From assembly GCF_006345805.1 (NCBI RefSeq), contig NC_043010.1:20708001-20772000 (forward strand): DNA of 64,000 nt. The letters are read 5' to 3'. The first letter of the stretch is position 1. The number at the start of each line of letters is the position of its first letter. The notes below the pieces were generated by a model. That model saw only the letters and a list, made by a program, of their open reading frames with translations, searched no databases and was not told where the DNA came from. Positions 16,051-60,004 of the stretch are shown here, one piece after another. Source of the stretch: Octopus sinensis. Its lineage: Eukaryota. The position numbers were made by a program, and so were the translations under genes.

Positions 16051-16183
16051 ACACATGTTACACACACACACATATATATGTGTGTGTGTGTGTATATGTA
16101 TATATATATATATATATATATAGAATGCTCAAATGAAAGAAAATTTTAATAAAATGAGAAAATTAAAATATATAAAATATATT

Positions 16184-16224
16184 TATTCAACCGGTTTTCG
16201 TCATTGTATGACTTGTCAAGAATA
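16184..16224 (-). ncRNA. Hammerhead motif (U3-A8 variant) in the inverted pLTR
   Basis: Reverse complement of 24463-24503. Confidence 0.7.
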
Positions 16225-16802
16225 TTTATGTTTTAAGAAGTTATTTTAAAAATTAGAAAAGGGGAAAAAAAGAAAATTGCATTGTTTTTTGTAAAAGAAT
16301 AATGATATAAAAATGTACAAAAAATTAAAAAATAAGTTCTCCGATACATTGTGAGTTCGTTGTGTATCTTGAGTTTTATGGTTTGTTTACCAAAAAATTA
16401 CCTTGAGGTGTTAAGATCCAAAGGGATTAAGAGCATGTGATGTTGTTGTGTTGTTAAATTCAGCATGTTGCAGGACAGGAAGTAGTAGTAATTGTGGTCC
16501 TGGTTCTTCAGTTCCTGTGTTGTGGGTAAGGGGAGACAAGTCTTTTGAGTTCTTCAATAAAACCCAAATTATAAACTATCATTTTAGCTTCATTTGCATT
16601 ATCTTTTTATATAATTGCTTGTTAACTTAACTTTCAGATTTTAACACTTTATTTATATATTTCTAATAATATAAATCTGCATAGACAATTGCATTTCAAA
16701 TTGTCATATCATTTATAATAAAAATGATAGTAATAACAACAATAGTAAAAATGATATTTAAAGAATATAAGTTTTAGCTTGAAGTGATGAATGCATGGTA
16801 TC

Positions 16803-17036
16803 GGAGAGCTGGCAGAAGCGTTAGCACGCGGGGGAAAGCGCGTAGCCGTATTTCGTCTGCCGTTACGTTCTGAGTTCAAATTCCGCCGAGGTCGACTTTG
16901 CCTTCATCCTTTCGGGTCGATAATTTTGTTAAATTAAGTACCAGTTACGCACTGGGGTCGATAAATCGACTCAATCCGTTTGTCTGTCCTTGTTTGTCCC
17001 CTCTGTGTTTAGCCCCTTGTGGGTAGTAAAGAAATA
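16803..17036 (+). mobile_element. Young SINE (Meta-like core) inserted in the inverted PLE copy
   Basis: TSD GGTATC at 16797-16802 and 17037-17042; the other two pLTR copies show the empty site. Confidence 0.92.
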
Positions 17037-19192
17037 GGTATCTTTATATATTTGTGTTAGTCCATCCATGAAGAGTGAGGTAGAGAAAGGAAGTTTGATC
17101 ACGAGGAGTTTGCATATTAAGTTGTGTTGGAATTTTTCAATAAAGAGATTCTCCTTGTTAATTCTCTCCTGTGTGGTGATCCAGTCTTTACACATTGGTA
17201 GAAGGGGAATATATAGAATTTGGGGTTTAAGTCTTTAGCACATGAGTCTAAGTGTTCACTCAGTGGAATTTGTCGGTATTCCGGGAGATTTATTTGTTCT
17301 TTATGCACCGTTACTCGTTTACGTAACGGGGGAGACTCGTTTGTCCAACATAATTATGTGGCAACCAGCGCATGTGAGAACGTAGATAAGGTTCTCGGAG
17401 GAACAGGAGAAGTTAGTCTTGATTTTAAACTTCGTACCTTGTTTGAAGGCAAATTCAGAGCCTTCAAGTAGAAAGGGGCAGGTACCACAGTTTGAGCGTG
17501 CACATTTTTTTACTGTTGGGGGTGGATGTGGTGTGTGAAGTTTGGCATTTGTCAAGTTTTTTTTAAAGATTTGTGTTGCCTTTTGCATTTGAGGATTTTG
17601 TGTGTATTTATAATGTTTTTCATTTTTGGGTCTGTTGACAGTAGACTGAGGTTTTGTATGATTGTGGTGTATGCTTCGATATTTTTGGGGTTGTGGGTGG
17701 AAATGTATGGAAGTATTTTGAGGTTGTGTGTGGTGTTAGGTTGGGTGGTTTTCAGTGTAGTGTTGTCTAGTTCTTTGGCGCGTTTTATTCCATACTCTAT
17801 AAGGGTGGAGGGATATATTGACGTTGTAATAGTGTTTTTTTTGAGGTCTTGAAGGCGTATTTCTCATGTTTTGGGATCCGAGACAATGGTGCATACCCTT
17901 TTAGCTAAATTGAAAGGGATATTTGTCTTGGTGTGTTTTGGGTGGCATGAACTAAAGAGGAGGTATTGTTGTGAGTCTGTAGGTTTGTGGTAGATGTCTG
18001 TTATGATTTGGTTCTTAGGTGTTTTTATAATTAGGAGATCAAGGAATGGGAGATGATGTTTGCTTAATTCCATAGTGAATTGGATGTTGGGATGTATGTT
18101 GTTTAGTAAGGTTTTGAATTCCAGGAGTTTTTCATAAGGTTTCTTTCCATATGATGAAACAATCATCTAAATACCTTTTCCAGTTTTCCATTAGGTAGGT
18201 GTGGAAAACATGTCCAAATTTCTGGCTTGATATTTCATAGAGTGACAGTTCGAAGTTTACCCATTATGAGGTTCGCAAGGACTGGTGCAGCCTTGGTACC
18301 CATCGCAATGCCACATTTTTGACGGTAGTGTGTGTCGTCGAAGAGAAAAAAATTGTTTGTCAGAATGAACTTAAGAGATTCTGTAATAAAAGACTTGTTA
18401 ATGCGGTCAGGGAATGTCTCTGGGTGTTTTTCTAGCCAGAAGTCAATTGCCTCTATACCATACTCGTGTGGAATGTTGGTGTAGAGGTTGATGACATCAA
18501 AGGATACCAGGAGTGCCTCCTCGTTACTGTTTTCGGGAGGTGTTTGAGCATGTCCAGATCATCCCTAATGAAACTTTTGATGTGGGTAAGGAAAGGTTTC
18601 AAAAGGATATCTAGGAAGTTACTCAGGCGGTGTGTTTCACAGGAGGTACCAGCCACGATGGGCCTTAGTTTTAGGTCCTCCGGTGCTTTGATGTTGATGT
18701 GGATGTCAGTGGAGAGTTTGCAGGCTTCGGTGATGTATTTGTTTTTATGGATTTAGGAGGCCATAAAAAGGCTGGGCTTGCATTTGAAAATGGTGATATA
18801 ATCCCTTTCTTTTTCTCTGTGAGTCCTGACCGTGTTGGCGTATGAGTGTGGTGAGGTTTCTGATTGTTTTTTGCTGTTTGTAGTTGTTAATAACCTCATA
18901 GAAAATGTTATTGTTAAGCATGGAGAACACTAGGTGTTTATAAAATTCCGTGTCCATAAGGACCACAGCACTCCCTTTGTCCGCTTCTTTGATGGTGAGG
19001 TTTTTATCCAGTTGTATGTCACGTAGGTTTTCCCATTCTCCCTTACTGAAATTGGATTTTACCTTGGTTTTGCTTGGGGTAAAGGGGAGACTCTGGATGT
19101 GTTTACAGAAATCGTCCAGTGTTTTATTTCTCCCTTTTGGTGGTAGGAAGTTGCTTTTATTTCTGATCAATGAATCGTCCCCATTGTTGATA

Positions 19193-20039
19193 TCCAAACA
19201 CAACTTAATATGCAAACTCCTCGTTGATCAAACTTCCTTTCTCTACCTCACTCTTCATGGATGGACTAACACAAATATATAAAGATACCATGCATTCATC
19301 ACTTCAAGCTAAAACTTATATTCTTTAAATATCATTTTTACTATTGTTGTTATTACTATCATTTTTATTATAAATGATATGACAATTTGAAATGCAATTG
19401 TCTATGCAGATTTATATATTATTAGAAAATCTATAAATAAAGTGGTTAAAATCTGAAAGTTAAGTTAACAAGCAATTATATAAAAAAGATAATGCAAATG
19501 AAGCTAAAATGATAGTTTTATAATTTGGGTTTTATTGAAGAACTCAAAAGACTTGTCTCCCCTACCCACAACACAGGAACTGAAGAACCAGGACCACAAT
19601 TACTACTACTTCCTGTCCTGCAACATGCTGAATTTAACAACACAACACATCACATGCTCTTAATCCCTTTGGATCTTAACACCTCAAGGTAATTTTTTGG
19701 TAAACAACCATAAAACTCAAGATACACAACGAACTCACAATGTATCGGAGAACTTATTTTTTAATTTTTGTACATTTTTATCATTATTCTTTTACAAAAA
19801 ACAAGCAATTTTCTTTTTTTCCCCTTTCTAATTTTTAAAATAACTTCTTAAAACATAAATATTCTTGACAAGTCATACAATGACGAAAACCGTTGAATAA
19901 ATATATATTTATATATTTTATCATTTTCTCATTTTATTAAAATTTTCTTTCATTTGAGCATTCTGCATTTTTAAAAAAATTTTTCCTTACTTATCATTTC
20001 TCCACGTGCGGTCAACACAACCCCACCATTTATTGATCT
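19193..20039 (+). repeat. 5' pseudo-LTR (partial tandem copy of the element's 3' end)
   Basis: Near-identical to 23798-24642; contains the HHR motif at 19860-19899 (one G missing). Confidence 0.93.
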
Positions 20040-20067
20040 GTACCCTCTACCACACGTGTGATTCAGA

Positions 20068-23000
20068 ATGCCTCCGAAAAACAAGAGCACTCTTACAGAG
20101 ACAGTCACCAATAAGACCATTCTAAAAGAACTCAAAGTACTCAATACACATCTACTTACATTCTCCAAAAAAATTGACGAACTCCTCCTTCAATCCCGGG
20201 ACAACTCAGAAAACAACCATCATCAACAACTTTCGGATAAAAATGATGTAAACCTAAACGAAATCAACACTACACTGAAAACTCTACTTTTTCGGATAAG
20301 ATAGATGTAAACCTAAATGAAATCAACACTACACTGAAAACTCTACTTACCAATTCAACGCCAAAGAGACCTCAGACAACCACTCAACACACAGAAGGAA
20401 CACATTTCAACCCCAGCACAACGCATTAAAAACCAGATCATCACTACTTGGACTAAGAAACTACACAACAGAAAACTTCTCTTCTGGAACATGCTCAAAA
20501 ACCAAAACAAAGCTGAAATTTACGACAAATGGTTAAACTCCTCCCCTATCATACTACCCCGAAAATTCCAAATCAAACACATCCCAGACGAACCTGAAAA
20601 ACAACGCTCCCTAAGAGAAAAACTAACATTGGAAAAAATGAAACCGAAGTAGAACTTCTAAAACTCAGAGCACAAAACCACGAACAAAATACACAAAAAT
20701 AGACGATGAGATACTTCTAGAACTAACCTCACACACCAACGAACAGCCCCTCGAACTTGTTATTAAACTATGGAAAGATGAATGTGAAAAGGAAGAACGA
20801 ACCTCCCTCAAACGCTGGGAAAACAACAAAGATTTCTTCCTCAACTATGAAACACAATTCATATTAAACCATAAATCCAAAACCCATTCATAAAAGTACC
20901 CACAACACAGACTTCCACTGTACCCCATAAACACCATTCCAAACCGCACCTCAAATACACATACTCTCCAAACCCCCTCCTAACAGGACACAACCTCCCC
21001 CAACCATATAAAAAACCTTTTCCCCCCCGAAACATCTCAAACAAGACCCACCACAAAACCTGGTTTTCCAATCACTCTAACACCCCTCCCCCACCGATTA
21101 GAACCTTCAAGAACCTCCCATACACTAGAAATTATCGCCCCCTCAAGGCTCCCCTCCCTCACACTAATAACAAACAAGGCATCCTACCCACACCGATACA
21201 TATAAGACCCACCCAACGAACCCCCTATAGTCCACCCATCCAATAACCACATTCCTACCACATCTCCTACAGATCTCCAAACCCTCACATCCCACACGAA
21301 CCCAATCACCACAACTACATACCCCCCTACATCCCCCATACAATCTACCAGTCCACCACCCACAAACCCATCGCATTTCTCACAAATCCTTACACCATCG
21401 CATCCCATACCAACACAAATACGACAACTACCTACCCCCCTCCAACCTCCCCACCCAAAACACTCCTACACATACAACCAGAACTTTAACAAAGAATACA
21501 CCCCTTACCTCAACAACCATTTTTTAGACAGAGGGGAAATACAAACACCACCGCTAACACAGACCCAAAATAAGAAAACAAAAATTATAAACCTCTCCAG
21601 CAAAACACTGACACCAACCCAAATCAACATCCTAGCAAGAGGTTTGAAATTCACACCCACCCCAAGAACACCCACCCCCCGGAGGTCAAGGATGACGTTT
21701 CTGAATTCTGCAGAAACTTCGCCTAACAGAAGCTTTGACAGATATCAACAATGGGGACGATTCATTGATCAGAAATAAAAGCAACTTCCTACCACCAAAA
21801 GGGAGAAATAAAACACTGGACGTTTTCTGTAAACACATCCAGAGTCTCCCCTTTACCCCAAGCAAAACCAAGGTAAAATCCAATTTCAGTAAGGAAGAAT
21901 GGGAAAACCTACGTGACATACAACTGGATAAAAACCTCACCATCAAAGAAGCGGACAAAGGGAGTGCTGTGGTCCTTATGGACACGGAATTTTATAAACA
22001 CCTAGTGTTCTCCATGCTTAACAATAACATTTTCTATGAGGTTATTAACTACAAACAGCAAAAAACAATCAGAAACCTCACCACACTCATACGCCAACAC
22101 GGTCAGGGACTCACAGAAAAAGAAAGGGATTATATCACCATTTTCAAATGCAAGCCCAGCCTTTTTTATGGCCTTCCTAAAATCCATAAAAACAAATACA
22201 TCACCGAAGCCTGCAAACTCTCCACTGACATCCACACATCAACATCAAAGCACCGGAGGACCTAAAACTAAGGCCCATCGTGGCTGGTACCTCCTGTGAA
22301 ACACACCGCCTGAGTAACTTCCTAGACATCCTTTTGAAACCTTTCCTTACCCACATCAAAAGTTTCATTAGGGATGATCTGGACATGCTCAAACACCTCC
22401 CGAAAACAGTTAACGAGGAGGCACTCCTGGTATCCTTTGATGTCATCAACCTCTACACCAACATTCACACGAGTATGGTATAGAGGCAATTGACTTCTGG
22501 CTAGAAAAACACCCAGAGACATTCCCTGACCGCATTAACAAGTCTTTTATTACAGAATCTCTTAAGTTCATTCTGACAAACAATTTTTTTCTCTTCGACG
22601 ACACACACTACCGTCAAAAATGTGGCATTGCGATGGGTACCAAGGCTGCACCAGTCCTTGCGAACCTCATAATGGGTTACTTCGAACTGTCACTCTATGA
22701 AATATCAAGCCAGAAATTTGGACATGTTTTCCACACCTACCTAATGGAAAACTGGAAAAGGTATTTAGATGATTGTTTCATCATATGGAAAGAACCTTAT
22801 GAAAAACTCCTGGAATTCAAAACCATACTAAACAACATACATCCCAACATCCAATTCACTATGGAATTAAGCAAACATCATCTCCCATTCCTTGATCTCC
22901 TAATTATAAAAACACCTAAGAACCAAATCATAACAGACATCTACCACAAACCTACAGACTCACAACAATACCTCCTCTTTAGTTCATGCCACCCAAAACA

Positions 23001-23832
23001 CACCAAGACAAATATCCCTTTCAATTTAGCTAAAAGGGTATGCACCATTGTCTCGGATCCCAAAACACGAGAAATACGCCTTCAAGACCTCAAAAAAACA
23101 CTATTACAACGTCAATATCCCTCCACCCTTATAGAGTATGGAATAAAACGCGCCAAAGAACTAGACAACACTACACTGAAAACCACCCAACCTAACACCA
23201 CACACAACCTCAAAATACTTCCATACATTTCCACCCACAACCCCCAAAAATATCGAAGCATACACCACAATCATACAAAACCTCAGTCTACTGTCAACAG
23301 ACCCCAAAATGAAAAACATTATAAATACACACAAAATCCTCAAATGCAAAAGGCAACACAAATCTTTAAAAAAACTCTTGACAAATGCCAAACTTCACAC
23401 ACCACATCCACCCCCAACAGTAAAAAAATGTGCACGCTCAAACTGTGGTACCTGCCCCTTTCTACTTGAAGGCTCTGAATTTACCTTCAAACAAGGTACG
23501 AAGTTTAAAATCAAGACTAACTTCTCCTGTTCCTCCGAGAACCTTATCTACGTTCTCACATGCGCTGGTTGCCAACATAATTATGTTGGACAAACGAGTC
23601 TCCCGTTACGTAAACGAGTAACGGTGCATAAAGAACAAATAAATCTCCGGAATACCGACAAATTCCACTGAGTGACCACTTAGACTCATGTGCTAAAGAC
23701 TTAAACCCCAAATTCTATATATTCCCCTTCTACCAATGTAAAGACGGGATCACCACACAGGAGAGAATTAACAAGGAGAATCTCTTTATTGAAAAATTCC
23801 AAACACAACTTAATATGCAAACTCCTCGTTGA
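20068..23832 (+). pseudogene. PLE polyprotein: long N-terminal extension + reverse transcriptase + Cys linker + GIY-YIG endonuclease, frameshifted as read
   Basis: IINLSSKTLT..ILARGLKFTPTP; EADKGSAVVLMD; FYGLPKIHK; LVSFDVINLYTNI; GIAMGTKAAPVLANL; RYLDD; LPFLD; IYHKPTD; CARSNCGTC; NLIYVLTCAGCQHNYVGQT. Confidence 0.93.
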
Positions 23833-24642
23833 TCAAACTTCCTTTCTCTACCTCACTCTTCATGGATGGACTAACACAAATATATAAAGATACCATGCAT
23901 TCATCACTTCAAGCTAAAACTTATATTCTTTAAATATCATTTTTACTATTGTTGTTATTACTATCATTTTTATTATAAATGATATGACAATTTGAAATGC
24001 AATTGTCTATGCAGATTTATATTATTAGAAAATAATATAAATAAAGTGTTAAAATCTGAAAGTTAAGTTAACAAGCAATTATAAAAAAAGATAATGCAAA
24101 TGAAGCTAAAATGATAGTTTTATAATTTGGGTTTTATTGAAGAACTCAAAAGACTTGTCTCCCCTTACCCACAACACAGGAACTGAAGAACCAGGACCAC
24201 AATTACTACTACTTCCTGTCCTGCAACATGCTGAATTTAACAACACAACACATCACATGCTCTTAATCCCTTTGGATCTTAACACCTCAAGGTAATTTTT
24301 TGGTAAACAACCATAAAACTCAAGATACACAACGAACTCACAATGTATCGGAGAACTTATTTTTTAATTTTTGTACATTTTTATCATTATTCTTTTACAA
24401 AAAACAATGCAATTTTCTTTTTTCCCCTTTCTAATTTTTAAAATAACTTCTTAAAACATAAATATTCTTGACAAGTCATACAATGACGAAAACCGGTTGA
24501 ATAAATATATATTTATATATTTTATCATTTTCTCATTTTATTAAAATTTTCTTTCATTTGAGCATTCTGCATTTAAAAAAAAATTTTCGTTACTTATCAT
24601 TTCTCCACGTGCGGTCAACACAACCCCACCATTTATTGATCT
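23798..24642 (+). repeat. 3' pseudo-LTR
   Basis: Direct repeat of 19193-20039. Confidence 0.93.
24463..24503 (+). ncRNA. Minimal hammerhead motif, U3-A8 core variant
   Basis: TATTC-TTGACAA-GTCAT(aca)ATGAC-GAAA-ACCGGT-T-GAATA. Confidence 0.7.
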
Positions 24643-25173
24643 ATATATATATATGTATGGGAGAGAGAAAAAGAGAGAGGTGATTCCACTTAGTTTCCGG
24701 ATACCAAATTCCGCTCATACACATTGGTAAGCTAAAGGCCCGAACAGAAGACTGAAGAAGAAAGATACTTTGTCCAAAGGGTTTCGTGATGAGATTCAGT
24801 CACAGAGTCACCTGGATAAAAAACCAATAATTTTAACAAAATCTCACCTGTGCCTTTTCAGGCCAGGATTTTTCAAACTGAAACAAAAGGAAGAAAAAGA
24901 AAAGAAGAAAAAAAGCCAAACCCTGACAGATTCAATGAATTTTATTAAAAGAGCGGAAACTTATCAATATTTATAAATTCTTTGGGAAAACTAAAGTGAA
25001 AGAAATGTTTAGATAAAATGAATAAAAAAAGAAAAGAAGAATGGTATTAATTAAAAAAAACAATAAATGGACACCTATTGTATGAAATGCAACATTATGA
25101 GTGTGTGTATATATATATATGTATATATATATATATGTATATATATATGTATATATATATATATATCTATCTA

Positions 25174-47794: not shown

Positions 47795-48008
47795 GGACGG
47801 ACGCTAGTCAAATGGGCTCCACATAAGTTGACCACTTTTACATGTTTAAAACTCCTTGTTGTCAAATATTTTGTTTTAATCGTTGTGCAAGTTCATTCAC
47901 TAAAAAACCTGAGAATTATTCACGTAGAATTCCGCCCCTGTATGGGCGAAATTACAAAAAATTTTCAAAACTTTCGTGGGTTCCTTTTAGCCATTTTTCA
48001 TTTTGAAA

Positions 48009-49933
48009 ATGGCAACTAGAAACCACGTGGCTAGCCCGTCAGTCATGCGGAACGGTAGCGAAACACTATTACTACCACTAGCTGCTAAACCTCGCAGCTT
48101 GAACACCGCTGTCACCACCACCACCAACAACAGCAACAAAACTAACGTTGCAAGACCATTCACCATCGCCGCGACCAAAGACATTAACTTAGATTTTTCC
48201 CCACTCCCTACACCACTTGTCGATGAAAAAAGGACGGAGAAAGGGATTTCAAAAACGAATACAGACGCAAACATGAATGCCAGCACCACCACCATCACTA
48301 CCAACAACAACAACAACAACAACAACGAGATCAGCACAAAGCCGCCTACCGAAGACAACACCGCCAACACCAACACCACTACCACGACTTCAACTGCTAC
48401 AACTAACTCCTCTGCTGCTAACACCGCCAAAATTAAAACGAATTTCGCTGATGCGGCAAAACAAAAACGAACAATCGTAAAATTCACCACACAGGAAATA
48501 AACCTCACAAAAGCACTCTTCACCAAAGGAGGAGATAAATTGCATCTTCACATTCCACAACACACCGTGGAAAACACACACACAAAAAAACAATAATCTA
48601 CAAAGTCATCAACAAGAAAACAAGACGACCAGAAAATGCACCGCAGGAAAAAATTGAAAAATGCCTTCGTCTTGCATGGGACTCAAAGGAGTATATCAGT
48701 TGGGGAAATAAATTTGGCACAGTCCAAGTACGTTTCCTCAACGAAAATCTAGCAAAACGGTTTTCCACATTGGAGCTGCATTCAGACGACTTGGTAATGA
48801 TACCAATCTATTTAGGCCAGAGGTAACGAAAGTCTAAATAAAAAATTTACCACCTGAAGTCGAAATACAATGGTTAGTCTCTGCCATCTGCTTTGAAATG
48901 GCAGAGACAAACATTCTTGAAATCGCTGTTCTAGGACAGAAAAACTGGGTGCGAAAAATCAATCCAATTCCTCCATCAATTGGATGAAACAACAAGAGAA
49001 AAGATACCCACCACTATAGAACTGCCAGAAGGCTACAAACTCTATATAGTGGCAGAGGGCAGGCGACCACGTTGCTATTTGTGTGGAAGCGAAACACACT
49101 TGAAAAAGAAGTGCCCAACCACTGCACATCAAGAGCAACAGCAACCACTACCACAACCAAAACACCCCGAGAAAAAAAGCTCTACTACCCACACCACCAT
49201 CAACACAGAAGACGACAAAAGAAGCACACCAAGCTAATCCAGCAACAACCCAAAATTACTCAACACCTGAGAAAATACCAACACCACCAATAACAGCAAG
49301 AACCAAAGGAACAGAAAAACAAAGAAAATATACAAAAACTGATTCCCCATCCCTTATACCGCACTCACCACACACAAACACTCAACAACCAACAGCAACG
49401 AAAACAACAACACAACCACTTACACAGACATACATAGAAGCCTACAACATACCCCTACCCCCTTCTGATTCCTCAGAAAATTCGTCGGAAGACGAAACCA
49501 GTGAGGAATGGCAAATAGCTAGAAAAGGAAGGAAAATAAAGAGCAGAAACACAACCAAACCAAATGCAAACACGAACAAAGCAGGGGGAAATACATCTAC
49601 CAAAGACATTTCAAAACCCAACACAAACAACAGCCACACCAACACCACAAAAATATATACATCAAACATGCTCACAGCTATAGACACCAAAAACACAAAT
49701 TTGATGGAATACATCAAATCAAAACCAAACATAACAGAAGATGACATAAAAACAAACAATCACCCATACACAACATCAAAATATTACGTATCTCCAGAAG
49801 TCTGCACCACACACTAAAAGGCATTTTCCCCAGTGCGTTTGGTAAATGCCAAAAATACCTCACAAAGAAACTTTACTGGGATCTCCTCGAGGACAAACCA
49901 AAGGAGGAGAAAGTAAAAACTTTCGAGCAGTAA
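48009..49933 (+). pseudogene. LINE ORF1 (Thr/Asn-rich, CCHC zinc knuckle), disrupted
   Basis: VAEGRRPRCYLCGSETHLKKKC knuckle (~49050-49113); several stops and frameshifts. Confidence 0.8.
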
Positions 49934-49977
49934 GTAACCCTCTGTTCCTTTCACTTGTATTCTAATTCATTAGGATT

Positions 49978-52080
49978 ATGATCAAGATTGGTTGTGTAAA
50001 TGCGCGTGACTTGGGGTCCCCTTGGAAACAAGGGTACCTCTTAAATGACATAAAGTCACACAAGTTAGAAATCATAGCCATAAGTGAGACCAGACTCCAC
50101 AATCCGCGGGCCCTAAAGACCATGTTTGGCGGACAGTTCAACATTTATTTTCCCCCCTGTCTGCCAAGAATGGGCGGTAGTGACACCGCGGTACTTTTTC
50201 GCAAGAGTCTGGATCTCAAAGTAAAGACAATATTCGTAGACCCGGAGGTTAGACTGGTCGTCCTGGATGTCGACGGCAGCAATGGGTGCGCTTTTCGATT
50301 CGTATCAGTCTACGCACCGCTAACGGGTCGAGCGTATTTCTTTCAACGTCTAGAAGTATTCTTGGGAACGTCTCGTCCTTTACTCTTAGTGGGGGATTGG
50401 AATACTACCTTGGACACGCATGTAGACTACGTGGGCAGATAGGAATAGACAGGGATGCACATGCCTCAGAGACCTGCTCAGACGCTTTCAACTGTCTGAC
50501 AGGTTCCGACTAGACCACCCGAATGCGCCAACGTGGACATAGAGCAACCGCATCGGGTCATCGAGATCGTATCTAGATAGGATACTGTGTAGGACAGTAG
50601 ATAGAGATAGCATAGGATGTCCACAATTCCACATAGTCAGCTACATGGATCACAAACTTGTGACATGTACGCTAGACTTAGGTAAGACACATAGGCAGGG
50701 TCCCGGATACTGGAAACTAAACGCGTCTTTCCCATCGAGACAGGTTTTCAGAAACCGGATTAGCACACTAGTAAAGAGGGCTTTGACGGGAGCCATCATC
50801 AACAACAAATGGTGGTTTGCCCTCAAGAGAGCAGTAAAAGCAGAAGCGATTAGGTACAGCAAAGCACTAGCCATAGATAGAAATAGAGTAGAGGGTGAGC
50901 TAGTTAAGAAGCTAGAAGAGGCAATTAGAATTGCTCGAGCCAAGTAAAATGTGTGAGGCCTTTCAACAGCATTTTGCCCGACTGTTCGGGACGAGTGGCG
51001 GGCAAGAACGTAGGGTGGACTTCAGTGCCTACCTACACAGCCTACCACGACCCTCGACAAGAGAGGCAGGGCGCTGCCAAGGTACCATCACGGCGGCGGA
51101 AGTGCAGGACGCGATGGCAGAATGCTCGAGGGACAAATCGCCGGGTCTGGATGGTCTACCCTACGAGCTTTACAGTTGTATGCCAGACTTGTTTGGAGAC
51201 GTCTTGGCAGCGATGTACTGCAACTGGCAGCAAAACGGGAGCATTCCAGGTTTTGTGAGCTGAGGAGCCGTAACACTGCTGAAGAAAGATCTAAACAAAG
51301 GGAATGTAATAGATAACTTTAGGCTCATCACTCTGCTTAATGCAGACTTGAAAATTTTGCCCAAGGTGTTAGCCAAGAGGTTGGCGCTTGTCATCGAGAA
51401 ATTGGTCGACAAGGCGCAAACGTGCGCCGTGCCGGGCCGAAGCATCCATGACAACCTCCACCTGATGCGCCACATCATAGACAGGGTAGTTAAGGAACCT
51501 GGCATGGGTGGGGCGCTAATCAATTTGGATCAATCGAAAGCTTTCGATAGGGTAGACCATCGATACTTGGAGAGTGTCCTCAGAGCGGCTGGTTTCGGTC
51601 TCGTCTTCCGCGGCTGAATAGCCGCTTTGTACAGAGGAATCCGTTTGGCAATTCGCGTGAATGGACATCTATCGAGACCTTTCGATATCGCACGTTCGGT
51701 CCGTCAGGGATGCCCCCTCTCGTCGCTTCTATACGTATTGACTCTCGAGCCATTATTGCGGAAGCTGACAACTCTGAGGTGCATCCCGCGAGAACTGGGG
51801 TGCGGGACGAGCGTGTCTGCATACGCGGACGACATCACCGTCATAGTGTCTAGCCACGAGCACATAGAGCAGGTCGGCGAGACACTGAAAAACTACGAAG
51901 CGGTGACAGGAACGAAAATCAACCGGGAAAAATCAGTGGGCTTGCGACTCGGCACCTGGTGAAGCAAGCCCATGCCGTCCACCAGCGCCTCCGTCGTGGG
52001 ACGCTGGACCGACGGTCCGCTCGAGTTGCTCGGGGTCTGGTTTGGTCCGGACCTCCAAATGGAGAAGAACTGGAACGCAG
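49978..52080 (+). pseudogene. LINE ORF2: APE endonuclease + reverse transcriptase, disrupted
   Basis: NARDL, IAISET, SVYAP, GDWN, DHK, GPGYWKLN; KSPGLDGLPYELY, LDQSKAFDRVDH, RQGCPLS, SAYADD. Confidence 0.95.
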
Positions 52081-52094
52081 TAACTTACCAAGTC

Positions 52095-52637
52095 CATAAG
52101 TTACATTTAATCGTCTGGTGGGATTGCATAAGTTACATTTGATCGTCTGGTGGGGTCGCATAAGTTACATTTGATCGTCTGGTGGGATCGCACAAGTTAC
52201 ATTTGATCGTCTGGTAGGATCGCATAAGTTACATTTGATCGTCTGGTGGGGTCGCATAAGTTACATTTGATCGTCTGGTGGGATCGCATAAGTTACATTT
52301 AATCGTCTGGTGGAATCGCATAAGTTACATTTGATCGTCTGGTGGGGTCGCATAAGTTACATTTGATCGTCTGGTGGGATCGCATAAGTTACATTTGATC
52401 GTCTGGTAGGATCGCATAAGTTACATTTAATCGTCTGGTGGAATCGCATAAGTTACATTTGATCGTCTGGTGGGATCGCATAAATTACATTTGATCGTCT
52501 GGTGGGATTGTATAAGTTACATTTGATCGTCTGGTAGGATCGCATAAGTTACATTTGATCGTCTGGTGGGATTGCATAAGTTACATTTGATCGTCTGGTG
52601 GGATTGTATAAGTTACATTTGATCGTCTGGTGGGATC
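52095..52637. repeat. Minisatellite, 17 x 32 bp (CATAAGTTACATTTGATCGTCTGGTGGGATCG)
   Basis: Contiguous units, 543 bp, variation limited to a few positions. Confidence 0.97.
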
Positions 52638-55711: not shown

Positions 55712-56016
55712 GTATATATGTATATATATATTTGCCTAATTTCTTTTATTTCATCGGTTATCGATTAACCAACCATAACTGAGGCGAAGCCATTCAAAGC
55801 AATTGATGACCAATTAGATTACGTAACTGAACAAAAGTAACCCCTGCCCACTTCTCGCAAGATTTCACCTACTGCATAAAGAAAAAAAGTAACGGAGAAA
55901 TAAACATATCACGTTTATATGAGAATATATATAAGTTTGTGTAATATTGTTATAATTATATTATATAATTACAATGATACAAGCTACTGCACTTACCCTC
56001 CCTTCTAAAACATATA

Positions 56017-57307
56017 CGAGGGGCGTTCAATAAGTAATGCCCCTGACCCACTTCCCATAGCAGTAGAGCAACGAAACTTGGCACAGTTATTAGTCTTTTT
56101 CTACATAGGAACCACCCAGAGTTATGCATTTCTCCCATCGTTTGATGTGGCTCTGGAGACCGTTTTTGTAGAAGAACCTAGTTTGGTCCTCTAACCTCAA
56201 CGTGACTTCAGAAATCAAGGCTGCATCATCTGGGAAACGCTTTCTTTTCAAAAACAACTTCATGACTGGGAAGAGGTGAAAATCAGAGGGTGCAAGGTCA
56301 GGAAAGTAGGGTGATGGGGGAGGAGTTCATAGCCATACGTCTGTGCTTCTGATCTGGCGACAAGCGAGTTGTGGACCGGAGCGTTGTCCTGCAGGAGGAG
56401 GATGCCTTTGCTGATCTTGCTCCGCCTCTTGATTTTGATAACTTCTCTTAATTTACTCAAAAGTGAAGCATAATAGGCTCCTGCAATTGTGGTACCCTTT
56501 GCCAGGAAATCTGTCATCACTACTCCGTCCTGGTCCCAGAAGATTGTGAGCATGACCTTGCCAGGGGAGGGCTGCACCCTTGCCTTCTTTGGAGGGGGTG
56601 AGTCACGGTGTTTCCACTGCATTGACTGGGCTTTGGTCTCTGGATCATCGTGATGGACCCAGGTTTCATCCTGTGTAATCAGTCTTTTGAAAAATTTTGA
56701 CTCATCTTCTTGGCACATCTCCAAATTCACCCTCGAGCACTCGACGCGTTCTTGCTTCTGGAAAGGCGTGAGCAACCTGGGAATCCATCTGGCAGACACC
56801 TTTTGCATATGCAAATGGTCATGAATGATAGTTTCCACAGACCCGGTACTAATCTTGACCTCATGGGCTATTTGGCGAATAATTATGCGTCGATCTTCCA
56901 AAATGGCAGCCTCAACTTGACGGACAGATGCCTCATCAATGGCAGAAGGGGGCGACCAGATCTGGGAACTGTTTCCACAGAGTTCCGACCATGTTTGAAT
57001 TCACGATGCCAGCGTTTTACAAGGTCATATGATGAGGCATCATCACCATAAGTTACTTTCATTTCATCAAAAGTCTCCCGTGGTGTGCGTCCTTTCAAAT
57101 ACAAAAACCGGATCACTGCTCGACACTCAACAGGCTCCATTTCACAATTGACTCAGTTCAAACATCTGTAAATCAGAAACCACAATTAGTTCAGAGCTGT
57201 AATTCGCCTCTTAATCTATAGAGATATAAACGATTACCCATGCAAAATTTCAGCTAGATCAAACAACTGCAAGTGGGTCAGAGGCATTACTTATTGAACG
57301 TCCCTTG
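56017..57307 (-). mobile_element. Full-length mariner (DD34D), transposase broken by two frameshifts
   Basis: TA-flanked TIR CGAGGGGCGTTCAATAAGTAATGCC; WIPRLL, ITQDETWVHH, LLQDNAP, PDLAPSDFHLF. Confidence 0.96.
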
Positions 57308-57367
57308 TATAATACGTATGTATCTACGAGTATGTTTGAGCGGAAAAATATATGTATATATATATAT

Positions 57368-58075: not shown

Positions 58076-58532
58076 GTGTATGCATATACATTGTGTATGC
58101 ATATACATGCAAATATGTATGTACATGTAAGTGTAGGTATATGTATTTATGTATATTTATTTACTAAAATTACAATTACAACAATATACATACATGTATA
58201 ACATATTATGCTTTACATATATAATATGAAAAGATACCAGTAATTATTAAAATATTTAACATACATGAATAGAAATTTGGAAAATATCTTACAGCTGTTT
58301 TAGCCAAGAGGCAAAAATATCTCATTTCTACAGCTGAGGTATAAGGTCACTTTGATGTTTTGTCCCTTGTTTGAGTTTGGTCCAACTGGTTTCCGGCATG
58401 TATTTTAACCATATAGTACCCATATAAGTCAGTAAATATATTAATGATTCACATAGTTAGAGTTATACATATAATGTTGTATAAATGTTTTTTTATAATA
58501 AATTTGTAATAATTTACCTCTCATACGTATTA

Positions 58533-59822
58533 CGAGGGACGTTCAATAAGTAATGCCTCTGACCCATTTCAGTTGTTTGATCTAGCTGAAATTTTACATG
58601 TGCACTTATTTATATCTCTATAGATTAAGAGGCGAATTACAGCTCTGAACTAATTGTGGTTTCTGATTTACAGGTGTTTGAACTGAGTCAAGTGTGAAAT
58701 GGAGCCTGTTGAGTGTCGAGCAGTGATCTGGTTTTTGTATTTGAAAGGACGCACACCACGGGAGACTTTTGATGAAATGAAAGTAACTTATGGTGATGAT
58801 GCCTCATCATATGACCTTGTAAAACGCTGGCATCGTGAATTCAAACATGGTCGGAACTCTGTGGAAACAGCTCCCAGATCTGATCGCCCCCTTCTGCCAT
58901 TGATGAGGCATCTGTCCGTCAAGTTGAGGCTGCCATTTTGGAAGATCGACGCATAATTATTCGCCAAATAGCCCATGAGGTCAAGATTAGTACCGGGTCT
59001 GTGGAAACTATCATTCATGACCATTTGCATATGCAAAAGGTGTCTGCCAGATGGATTCCCAGGTTGCTCACGCCTTTCCAGAAGCAAGAACGCGTCGAGT
59101 GCTCGAGGGTGAATTTGGAGATGTGCCAAGAAGATCAGTCAAAATTTTTCAAAAGACTGATTACACAGGATGAAACCTGGGTCCATCACGATGATCCAGA
59201 GACCAAAGCCCAGTCAATGCAGTGGAAGCACCGTGACTCACCCCCTCCAAAGAAGGCAAGGGTGCAGCCCTCCCCTGGCAAGGTCATGCTCACAATCTTC
59301 TGGGACCAGGACGGAGTAGTGATGACAGATTTCCTGGCAAAGGGTACCACAATTGCAGGAGCCTATTATGCTTCACTTTTGAGGAAATTAAGAGAAGTTA
59401 TCAAAATCAAGAGGCGGAGCAAGATCAGCAAAGGCATCCTCCTCCTGCAGGACAACGCTCCGGTCCACAACTCGCTTGTCGCCAGATCAGAAGCACAGGC
59501 GTATGGCTATGAACTCCTCCCCCATCACCCTACTTTCCTGACCTTGCACCCTCTGATTTTCACCTCTTCCCAGTCATGAAGTTGTTTTTGAAAGGAAAGC
59601 TTTTCCCAGATGATGCAGCCTTGATTTCTGAAGTCACGTTGAGGTTGGAGGACCAAGCTGGGTTCTTCTACAAAAACGGTCTCCAGAGCCACATCAAACG
59701 ATGGGAGAAATGCATAACTCTGGGTGGTTCCTATGTAGAAAAAGACTAATAACTGTGCCAAGTTTCGTTGCTCTACTGCTATGGGAAGTGGGTCAGGGGC
59801 ATTACTTATTGAACGCCCCTCG
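58533..59822 (+). mobile_element. Full-length mariner, near-identical inverted twin of 56017-57307
   Basis: Same TIRs and the same 85-aa + 213-aa ORF split. Confidence 0.96.
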
Positions 59823-60004
59823 TATATTAAATATTTTCACCGTATGCATGGATGACTGCTAGTCTTCCATAAACAACCTTGCCCGGACTGTGCAATCCCA
59901 TGGTCAGTCATGATCGAAGGGGGTCTCAGCAATGTATATGTATGTATATTATAAGTATGCATATGTGTGTGTATTTATATTTATAACTTAGCCTTATGTA
60001 CTTT

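Follow-up and report, generated by a model that had tools for sequence, protein, structure and literature searches.

Inverted copies of a Neptune-type Penelope-like element in Octopus sinensis pair a tailed with a tailless end in almost every resolved locus

This work concerns a Penelope-like element (PLE) in the genome of Octopus sinensis, in which a full copy carries an inverted partial copy of itself at its 5′ side. The analyzed window is a stretch of 64,000 nt (assembly GCF_006345805.1, NC_043010.1, 20,708,001-20,772,000), and positions refer to it. The locus is a real, young, and ordinary two-headed PLE insertion, and its interest lies at the level of the family. How PLEs form tandem and inverted structures is described as an open question in PMC8557442 and PMC11167929, and the family provides a good natural data set for it: near-strict pairing of end types, together with alleles shared between the arms, replaces the remark that a tail is often found at one end by a rule based on counts.

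Structure of the locus

The features of the locus are summarized in Table 1, with element coordinates (E) given as the window position minus 19192. Between two (TA)n runs lie, in order, an inverted copy running from E5376 to E2549, a direct partial copy that overlaps it by 2 nt, and a full unit (E848-5450, 20040-24642). Self-BLAST of the window recovers the inverted copy as two matches (17037-19194 against 21741-23894, 98.2%; 16122-16802 against 23889-24568, 98.0%) and the partial tandem copy as a direct match (19193-20039 against 23798-24642, 98.4%). The original prediction of an inverted copy with reverse transcriptase (RT), endonuclease, and pseudo-long terminal repeat (pLTR), joined at 19193 to a pLTR-open reading frame (ORF)-pLTR unit, is thereby confirmed. 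The inverted repeat measures 2833 bp, with a loop of 2546 bp between the arms, and the inversion junction occurs once in the genome. Both outer ends read ...TCT/ATATAT at different points of the pLTR, as had been noted; they are 74 nt apart in element coordinates (about 70 bp in the earlier estimate). The 847-bp 5′ 'pLTR' is itself a 5′-cut tandem copy, and its length varies between copies of the element.

Table 1. Annotated features of the PLE insertion and its target site
Feature	Position	Strand	Basis
Left (TA)n target remnant	16099-16121	.	sequence
Inverted 5′-cut copy (E2549-5376): RT core, GIY-YIG endonuclease, 3′ untranslated region; without tail or start codon	16122-19194	-	
Minimal hammerhead-like motif (U3-A8 core) in arm	16184-16224	-	motif scan
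tRNA-like short interspersed nuclear element (SINE), arm only, between GGTATC copies (16797-16802, 17037-17042)	16803-17036	+	
Inversion junction, 2-nt overlap (TC)	19193-19194	.	
5′-cut tandem copy (E4606-5450) as 5′ pLTR, tail at its end	19193-20039	+	
Hammerhead-like motif in 5′ pLTR	19860-19899	+	motif scan
Predicted two-stem RNA hairpin over pLTR-ORF junction	19956-20074	+	folding
Single ORF of ~1250 codons, frameshifted in assembly	20069-23832	+	
Within ORF: RT core (YLDD near 22762)	~21945-22900	+	
Within ORF: C-x4-C-xx-C linker	near 23429	+	
Within ORF: GIY-YIG with CCHH	~23546-23830	+	
3′ pLTR stretch matching tandem piece (hammerhead-like motif at 24463-24503)	23798-24642	+	
Tail (45-48 nt, bounded by the two family end points; terminal ...GATCT)	24595-24642	+	
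Right (TA)n target remnant	24643-24654	.	sequence

The inverted arm begins at residue 86 of P0001, the unbroken 782-aa frame of a sister copy (L031). It had been predicted to form a coding inverted repeat of ~2.8 kb holding the whole RT and endonuclease. The length and the presence of the RT core and the endonuclease stand. The coding status does not: the arm has no start codon and lacks ~557 N-terminal codons, including a conserved IINLS...LARGLKF block (21584-21652), and is therefore not a coding unit.

The arm is split by a 234-bp tRNA-like SINE, which had escaped the original prediction. The SINE is flanked by a 6-bp duplication, its junction with the arm occurs once in the genome, and it probably inserted into the arm later than the element did, as its duplication and uniqueness suggest. 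It has 4103 first-look candidates in the genome; the search for its source copy gave a best match of 93% among 40 scored, largely owing to an 8-nt private insertion. Besides the SINE, arm and main copy differ by 12 substitutions and 32 short indels. Most of these indels are located within or next to short tracts of one or two bases, and long-read error is their probable cause. Likewise, the frameshifts differ between arm and main copy, lie mostly in or beside short runs, and are probably sequencing errors. The N-terminal region of the ORF holds a tandem duplication of 59 bp (20231-20348), which recurs in the other long copies.

Classification of the element

The element is classified as Neptune-type by its motifs rather than by an RT tree. 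P0001 matches RVT_1 (E-value 1e-7) and GIY-YIG (E-value 0.003, below the Pfam cut-off), and the pieces in the window match P0001 at 93-100% where in frame. One ORF thus combines RT with a GIY-YIG endonuclease, whose CCHH motif (IYVLTCAGC...YVG...VHKE...DHLD in P0001) is a feature of endonuclease-bearing (EN+) PLEs. The endonuclease is C-terminal and preceded by a CX2-5CxxC linker (CARSNCGTC at P0001 649), as in Neptune elements (Craig et al. 2021, PMC8557442). The spacer from CxxC to the next cysteine is 24 aa in P0001 and 23-30 aa in 117 of the 121 proteins scanned; Fig. S2 of that paper gives 25-27 aa in four Neptune-type rows and 7 aa in three Nematis rows. Microsatellite targeting, another Neptune feature, is also evident: genome-wide, exact matches to a tail end joined to (TA)n number 379 and those to a no-tail end joined to (TA)n 122, whereas control patterns gave 0. 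The pLTR formed by a partial tandem, the adjacent inverted 5′-cut copy, and the tail at one end also agree with the description in PMC8557442. There are two differences: the tail is 45-48 nt here and 30-40 nt as quoted there, and the present ORF has a long low-complexity N-terminal extension. Neptune itself is paraphyletic (PMC8557442).

Two other placements were rejected. Naiad/Chlamys elements have an N-terminal endonuclease, and the Penelope/Poseidon rows of PMC8557442 show no cysteine linker before GIY-YIG. A search for homologs returned 1378 at E-value 1e-30 or better among 7998 candidates, and the 120 listed carry no clade labels.

A pattern scan found a hammerhead-like motif with a U3-A8 core, a putative ribozyme, in each pLTR; it is identical in 44 of ~57 occurrences. 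Such a variant has been reported for PLEs (PMC4209133). The folding z-score of the motif is -0.18, and Rfam at gathering score returned no hammerhead or other match, only microsatellite noise. Clustering of 5′ cut points at the position where the hammerhead would cut was seen in one locus only (L092). In another locus, L084, six short alternating pieces are chained over 934 bp, and the majority of them turn at E5277-5278 inside the motif.

Two end types in inverted insertions

The layout of the window is common. The RT region gave 2358 first-look candidates, from which 40 places were scored at 96-100% and 38 other loci were fetched. An inverted arm that reaches the 3′ end is present in 18 of the 39 long copies, window included, and two more have mini-arms of 11-24 nt. 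Inverted repeats of 3.0 kb (L060) and 2.9 kb (L039) exceed that of the window, so the locus is not the unusual case it was taken for. The three-part layout recurs in 13 of 23 copies with a pLTR followed by an ORF, which show an adjacent inverted piece within 1.5 kb; a 24th hit for the pLTR-ORF junction had no pLTR and was left out. Inverted and tandem layouts are described as typical for PLEs (PMC8557442, PMC3846280), and the bioRxiv manuscript 10.64898/2026.07.22.740005 adds nothing on inverted arms in the part cited.

The 3′ ends of the family are of two kinds. Tail ends stop at E5450 (...GATCT/ATAT) and no-tail ends at E5398-5405 (mostly ...TTACT/ATAT), with a usual offset of 45-48 nt; CT/ATAT is common to both. 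One tail and one no-tail end were found in 47 of 48 resolved inverted insertions, two loci with mirrored host flanks (L034, L051) having been set aside before counting. When the 13 pairs picked by end pattern are omitted, 34 of 35 follow the rule. L066 was not resolved, and L063 and L065 have degenerate no-tail junctions.

Among loci selected by RT, all 17 resolved non-mirror inverted insertions have one end of each kind (two are mini-arms). The ends listed for C1, C2, and the initial 72.6 Mb of C3 (100 with tail, 33 without) yield 15 pairs that face outward. Each of these combines a tail with a no-tail end (p 3e-5 at best-case odds), and tail/tail and no-tail/no-tail pairs are absent. Thirteen of these pairs are new loci, whose interiors were confirmed on fetching. 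A further 20 tail ends comprise 10 with a no-tail inverted partner, one with a broken arm (L075), nine without a partner, and none with a tailed partner. Finally, 15 further junction-bearing copies include eight with an arm and both ends resolved, seven of which fit, L154 being the exception. As a separate observation, L140 (C2, near 25073410) is a copy without pLTR whose first position, E849, immediately follows the tail point and abuts (TA)n.

Relationship between the two arms

The arms of a locus probably share their source. Across 30 loci, mismatches between arm and main copy affect 19 of 1319 comparisons at subfamily sites, where a random partner would be expected to give 243.8, and 32 locus-private alleles are common to both arms, against seven in the control. 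Six loci were dropped from the allele test as too short, and mirror and internal-inversion loci were left out. In the window, a G>C change at 24154 occurs in each of the three pieces and is absent from 74 others, and two of 78 informative sites mismatch, against ~10 expected. The original prediction had allowed that arm divergence might expose two independent insertions; examined in this way, it does not.

Five loci (L033, L049, L061, L064, L065) carry the tail on the shorter arm, and their longer, non-tandem arm has no tail anywhere. In these loci, neither arm can have been copied from the other. At 19 non-mirror inversion junctions, the arms overlap by 2-9 nt (11 junctions) or 0-1 nt (four) or are separated by 3-8 extra bases (four); these values derive from BLAST end points and are approximate.

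Proposed mechanism

We conclude, with a probability of about 0.85, that the locus arose by one head-to-head insertion into (TA)n, for which RNA of a single source copy was likely reverse-transcribed twice. A single integration event primed on both strands of a (TA)n target had been predicted, and the analysis supports this. For the template switch that was part of that prediction, a better reading is two separate RT runs whose 5′-cut ends became joined, given the five loci in which the shorter arm is the tailed one. This analysis supplies the anatomy, the end types, the sharing of alleles, and the frequency in the family; nicking and extension on two strands, two internal start sites, and a predicted dimer come from PMC11167929; we infer that each event uses one start site on each strand and that a joining step follows.

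The element protein likely nicks both target strands and runs two reverse transcriptions from the RNA of one source, with the tail site as the likely start of the first and a site upstream of the tail as the likely start of the second. In the simplest reading, each event would use each start site once, on opposite strands. The tail-primed run would have exceeded one unit, giving the tandem 'pLTR', and a run of that length would need a tandem or circular RNA template. The other run would have ended after 2.8 kb, giving the inverted arm, and the two unfinished cDNA ends were likely joined through the 2-nt overlap. Most pieces upstream continue beyond the predicted hammerhead cut, in agreement with either a circular template or an uncut RNA.

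Poseidon provides a biochemical precedent (PMC11167929): its protein cuts and extends both target strands in vitro, starting at two internal RNA sites that bound the tail, with a dimer predicted and later steps left open. Poseidon PAc of the green anole (Frangieh et al. 2024, PMC11167929) shares with the present family these two start points, a predicted stem-loop that needs ORF-side bases, an AT-rich target, and a hammerhead near the pLTR end, matched here by the hammerhead-like motif. In contrast, PAc starts 111-118 nt inside the ORF, while the end points here lie 30 and ~78 nt upstream of the first AUG; the part of that paper cited holds no test of each site being used once per event. Pen2a of Adineta (Arkhipova et al. 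2013, PMC3846280) likewise has two direct pLTRs with an adjacent inverted one and an optional tail at one end, but its inverted part is a 181-bp pLTR with a visible 9-bp target duplication, compared with a 2.8-kb arm here. No target duplication is visible in the window because a (TA)n target hides it.

In twin priming of L1 elements, both target strands prime, as proposed here, and the inversion junction shows microhomology, as in the window; the products cover non-overlapping parts of one RNA. L1-type twin priming was rejected here: the arms overlap over E2549-5376, both copy the same 2.8 kb, and the 3′ ends of the element face outward.

The two end points fall within a predicted hairpin over the pLTR-ORF junction (z -2.75, 0 of 200 shuffles), where they occupy its two unpaired loops (~19991 and 20039). 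Its upper stem comprises the self-complementary CACGTG twice. No covariation was found among 24 copies, which are too alike to reveal it. A more tentative proposal, to which we give somewhat less than an even chance, is that PLE integration is asymmetric by design. A dimer would sit on one RNA hairpin, with each subunit priming from a different loop and strand on the same RNA molecule; every insertion would start two-headed, with one tail and one no-tail end, and 'simple' copies would be those with one head cut short or lost. Under this asymmetric-dimer proposal, it is fitting that the sole no-tail/no-tail locus (L154) is the one with its tail loop deleted.

Several observations weigh against an insertion of two runs from one source. 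The loci were selected by best score or exact pattern, not at random. L154 (C15, near 32453830) is a no-tail/no-tail insertion, the only one found (n=1); its 20-nt deletion in the tail loop of the pLTR-ORF junction is found nowhere else. L034 and L051, which were set aside, are tail/tail; their host flanks are mirrored over ~2 kb and 0.6 kb, and they are either fold-back or mis-join structures or later rearrangements. In the window, the left end lies ~26 nt upstream of the usual no-tail point and has a single exact match in the genome (one among 105 scanned ends), either because the start was shifted or because sequence was deleted later. The arms disagree at subfamily site 21823, with T in the main copy and six of 31 pieces and A in the arm. 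The nearest main copy to the arm is that of L048 (0.37%), just ahead of its own (0.39%). In addition, allele sharing could be explained by later gene conversion between the arms, and one RNA molecule is indistinguishable from two RNAs of one source.

Alternative explanations

The alternative that survives best, itself quite improbable, is that only one priming took place, after which a single cDNA folded back and copied itself or switched template, or that self-priming occurred on an antisense template as proposed in PMC3846280. It would explain the shared private alleles directly, L044, L082, L084, L092, L093, and L100 have the near-perfect hairpin junctions it would leave, and it is possible at this locus since all of the arm sequence is also present in the longer tailed copy. 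It cannot yield the five loci with a tailed shorter arm and a tailless longer one, however, and it leaves unexplained why, in almost every locus, the second end coincides with the second RT start site.

Two independent insertions, with one copy landing at the 5′ end of another, have slighter odds still. Such events are conceivable in an abundant family, and the discordance at 21823 could be read in this way. Against this stand the private allele in all three pieces and the low mismatch count, the head-to-head orientation with its family-wide end pairing, and the lack of (TA)n at the junction, when family 3′ ends join (TA)n.

An arm made by a fold-back read or a repeat mis-join, as the many short indels of the assembly and the mirrored flanks and identical ends of L034 and L051 in the same sample might suggest, is just as improbable, since the window flanks are unrelated (local score 10, against 508 for L034, 550 for L051, and 9-23 for the other 15 tested), the ends differ, only one arm holds the SINE, and substitutions separate the arms; the locus is not the artefact that the original prediction had considered. 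Contigs of public runs X1, X2, X3, and X16 (four of 24; ~76% of X1 and ~80% of X2 read; perhaps other individuals, with filtered records), compared with 19100-19290, give no evidence either way: no piece listed bridges 19193, and 115 pieces lie outside that list. No RNA data set was among the listed holders.

Age of the insertion

Arm and main copy differ at 10 of 2541 cleanly aligned sites (0.39%), against a median divergence of 1.03% between main copies of different loci (741 pairs). With the motifs above, this agrees with the earlier description of a young Neptune-type PLE. By the calibration of PMC13282606, in which a distance of 0.09 equals 25 million years and which presupposes an octopus host (as the SINE type and the microsatellite load suggest), the insertion would be roughly half a million years old at most; the age is an upper limit because errors inflate the divergence.

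Double-stranded RNA and neighboring sequences

Read-through of the locus had been suggested to give a long double-stranded RNA as a substrate for ADAR editing or silencing. Because the two halves point in opposite, outward directions, a sense transcript of the element itself would lack the arm, and both arms would be present only in a transcript from outside. No host exon was found around the element among frames of at least 150 aa (short exons were not sought). An ADAR footprint in the DNA was rejected, which is silent on RNA editing: locus-private changes have no A>G excess (A>G 8.7 against T>C 12.9 per 10,000 sites), and no hypermutated copy was seen. Young inverted repeats of 2-3 kb could give double-stranded RNA where a host transcript crosses them, and the idea would apply equally to dozens of other loci.

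Other repeats are present elsewhere in the window. Two 1.3-kb copies, 98% identical, lie inverted and 1.2 kb apart at 56012-57320 (-) and 58522-59827 (+); both have a frame that we take, from its motifs, to be a mariner-like transposase. Frames at ~47990-50450 presumably represent ORF1 and the AP-endonuclease start of a non-LTR retrotransposon. A tandem array of a 32-bp unit, ~94% alike, occupies 52092-52637, and an 800-bp stretch at 12088-12882 matches its own reverse complement at 90%.

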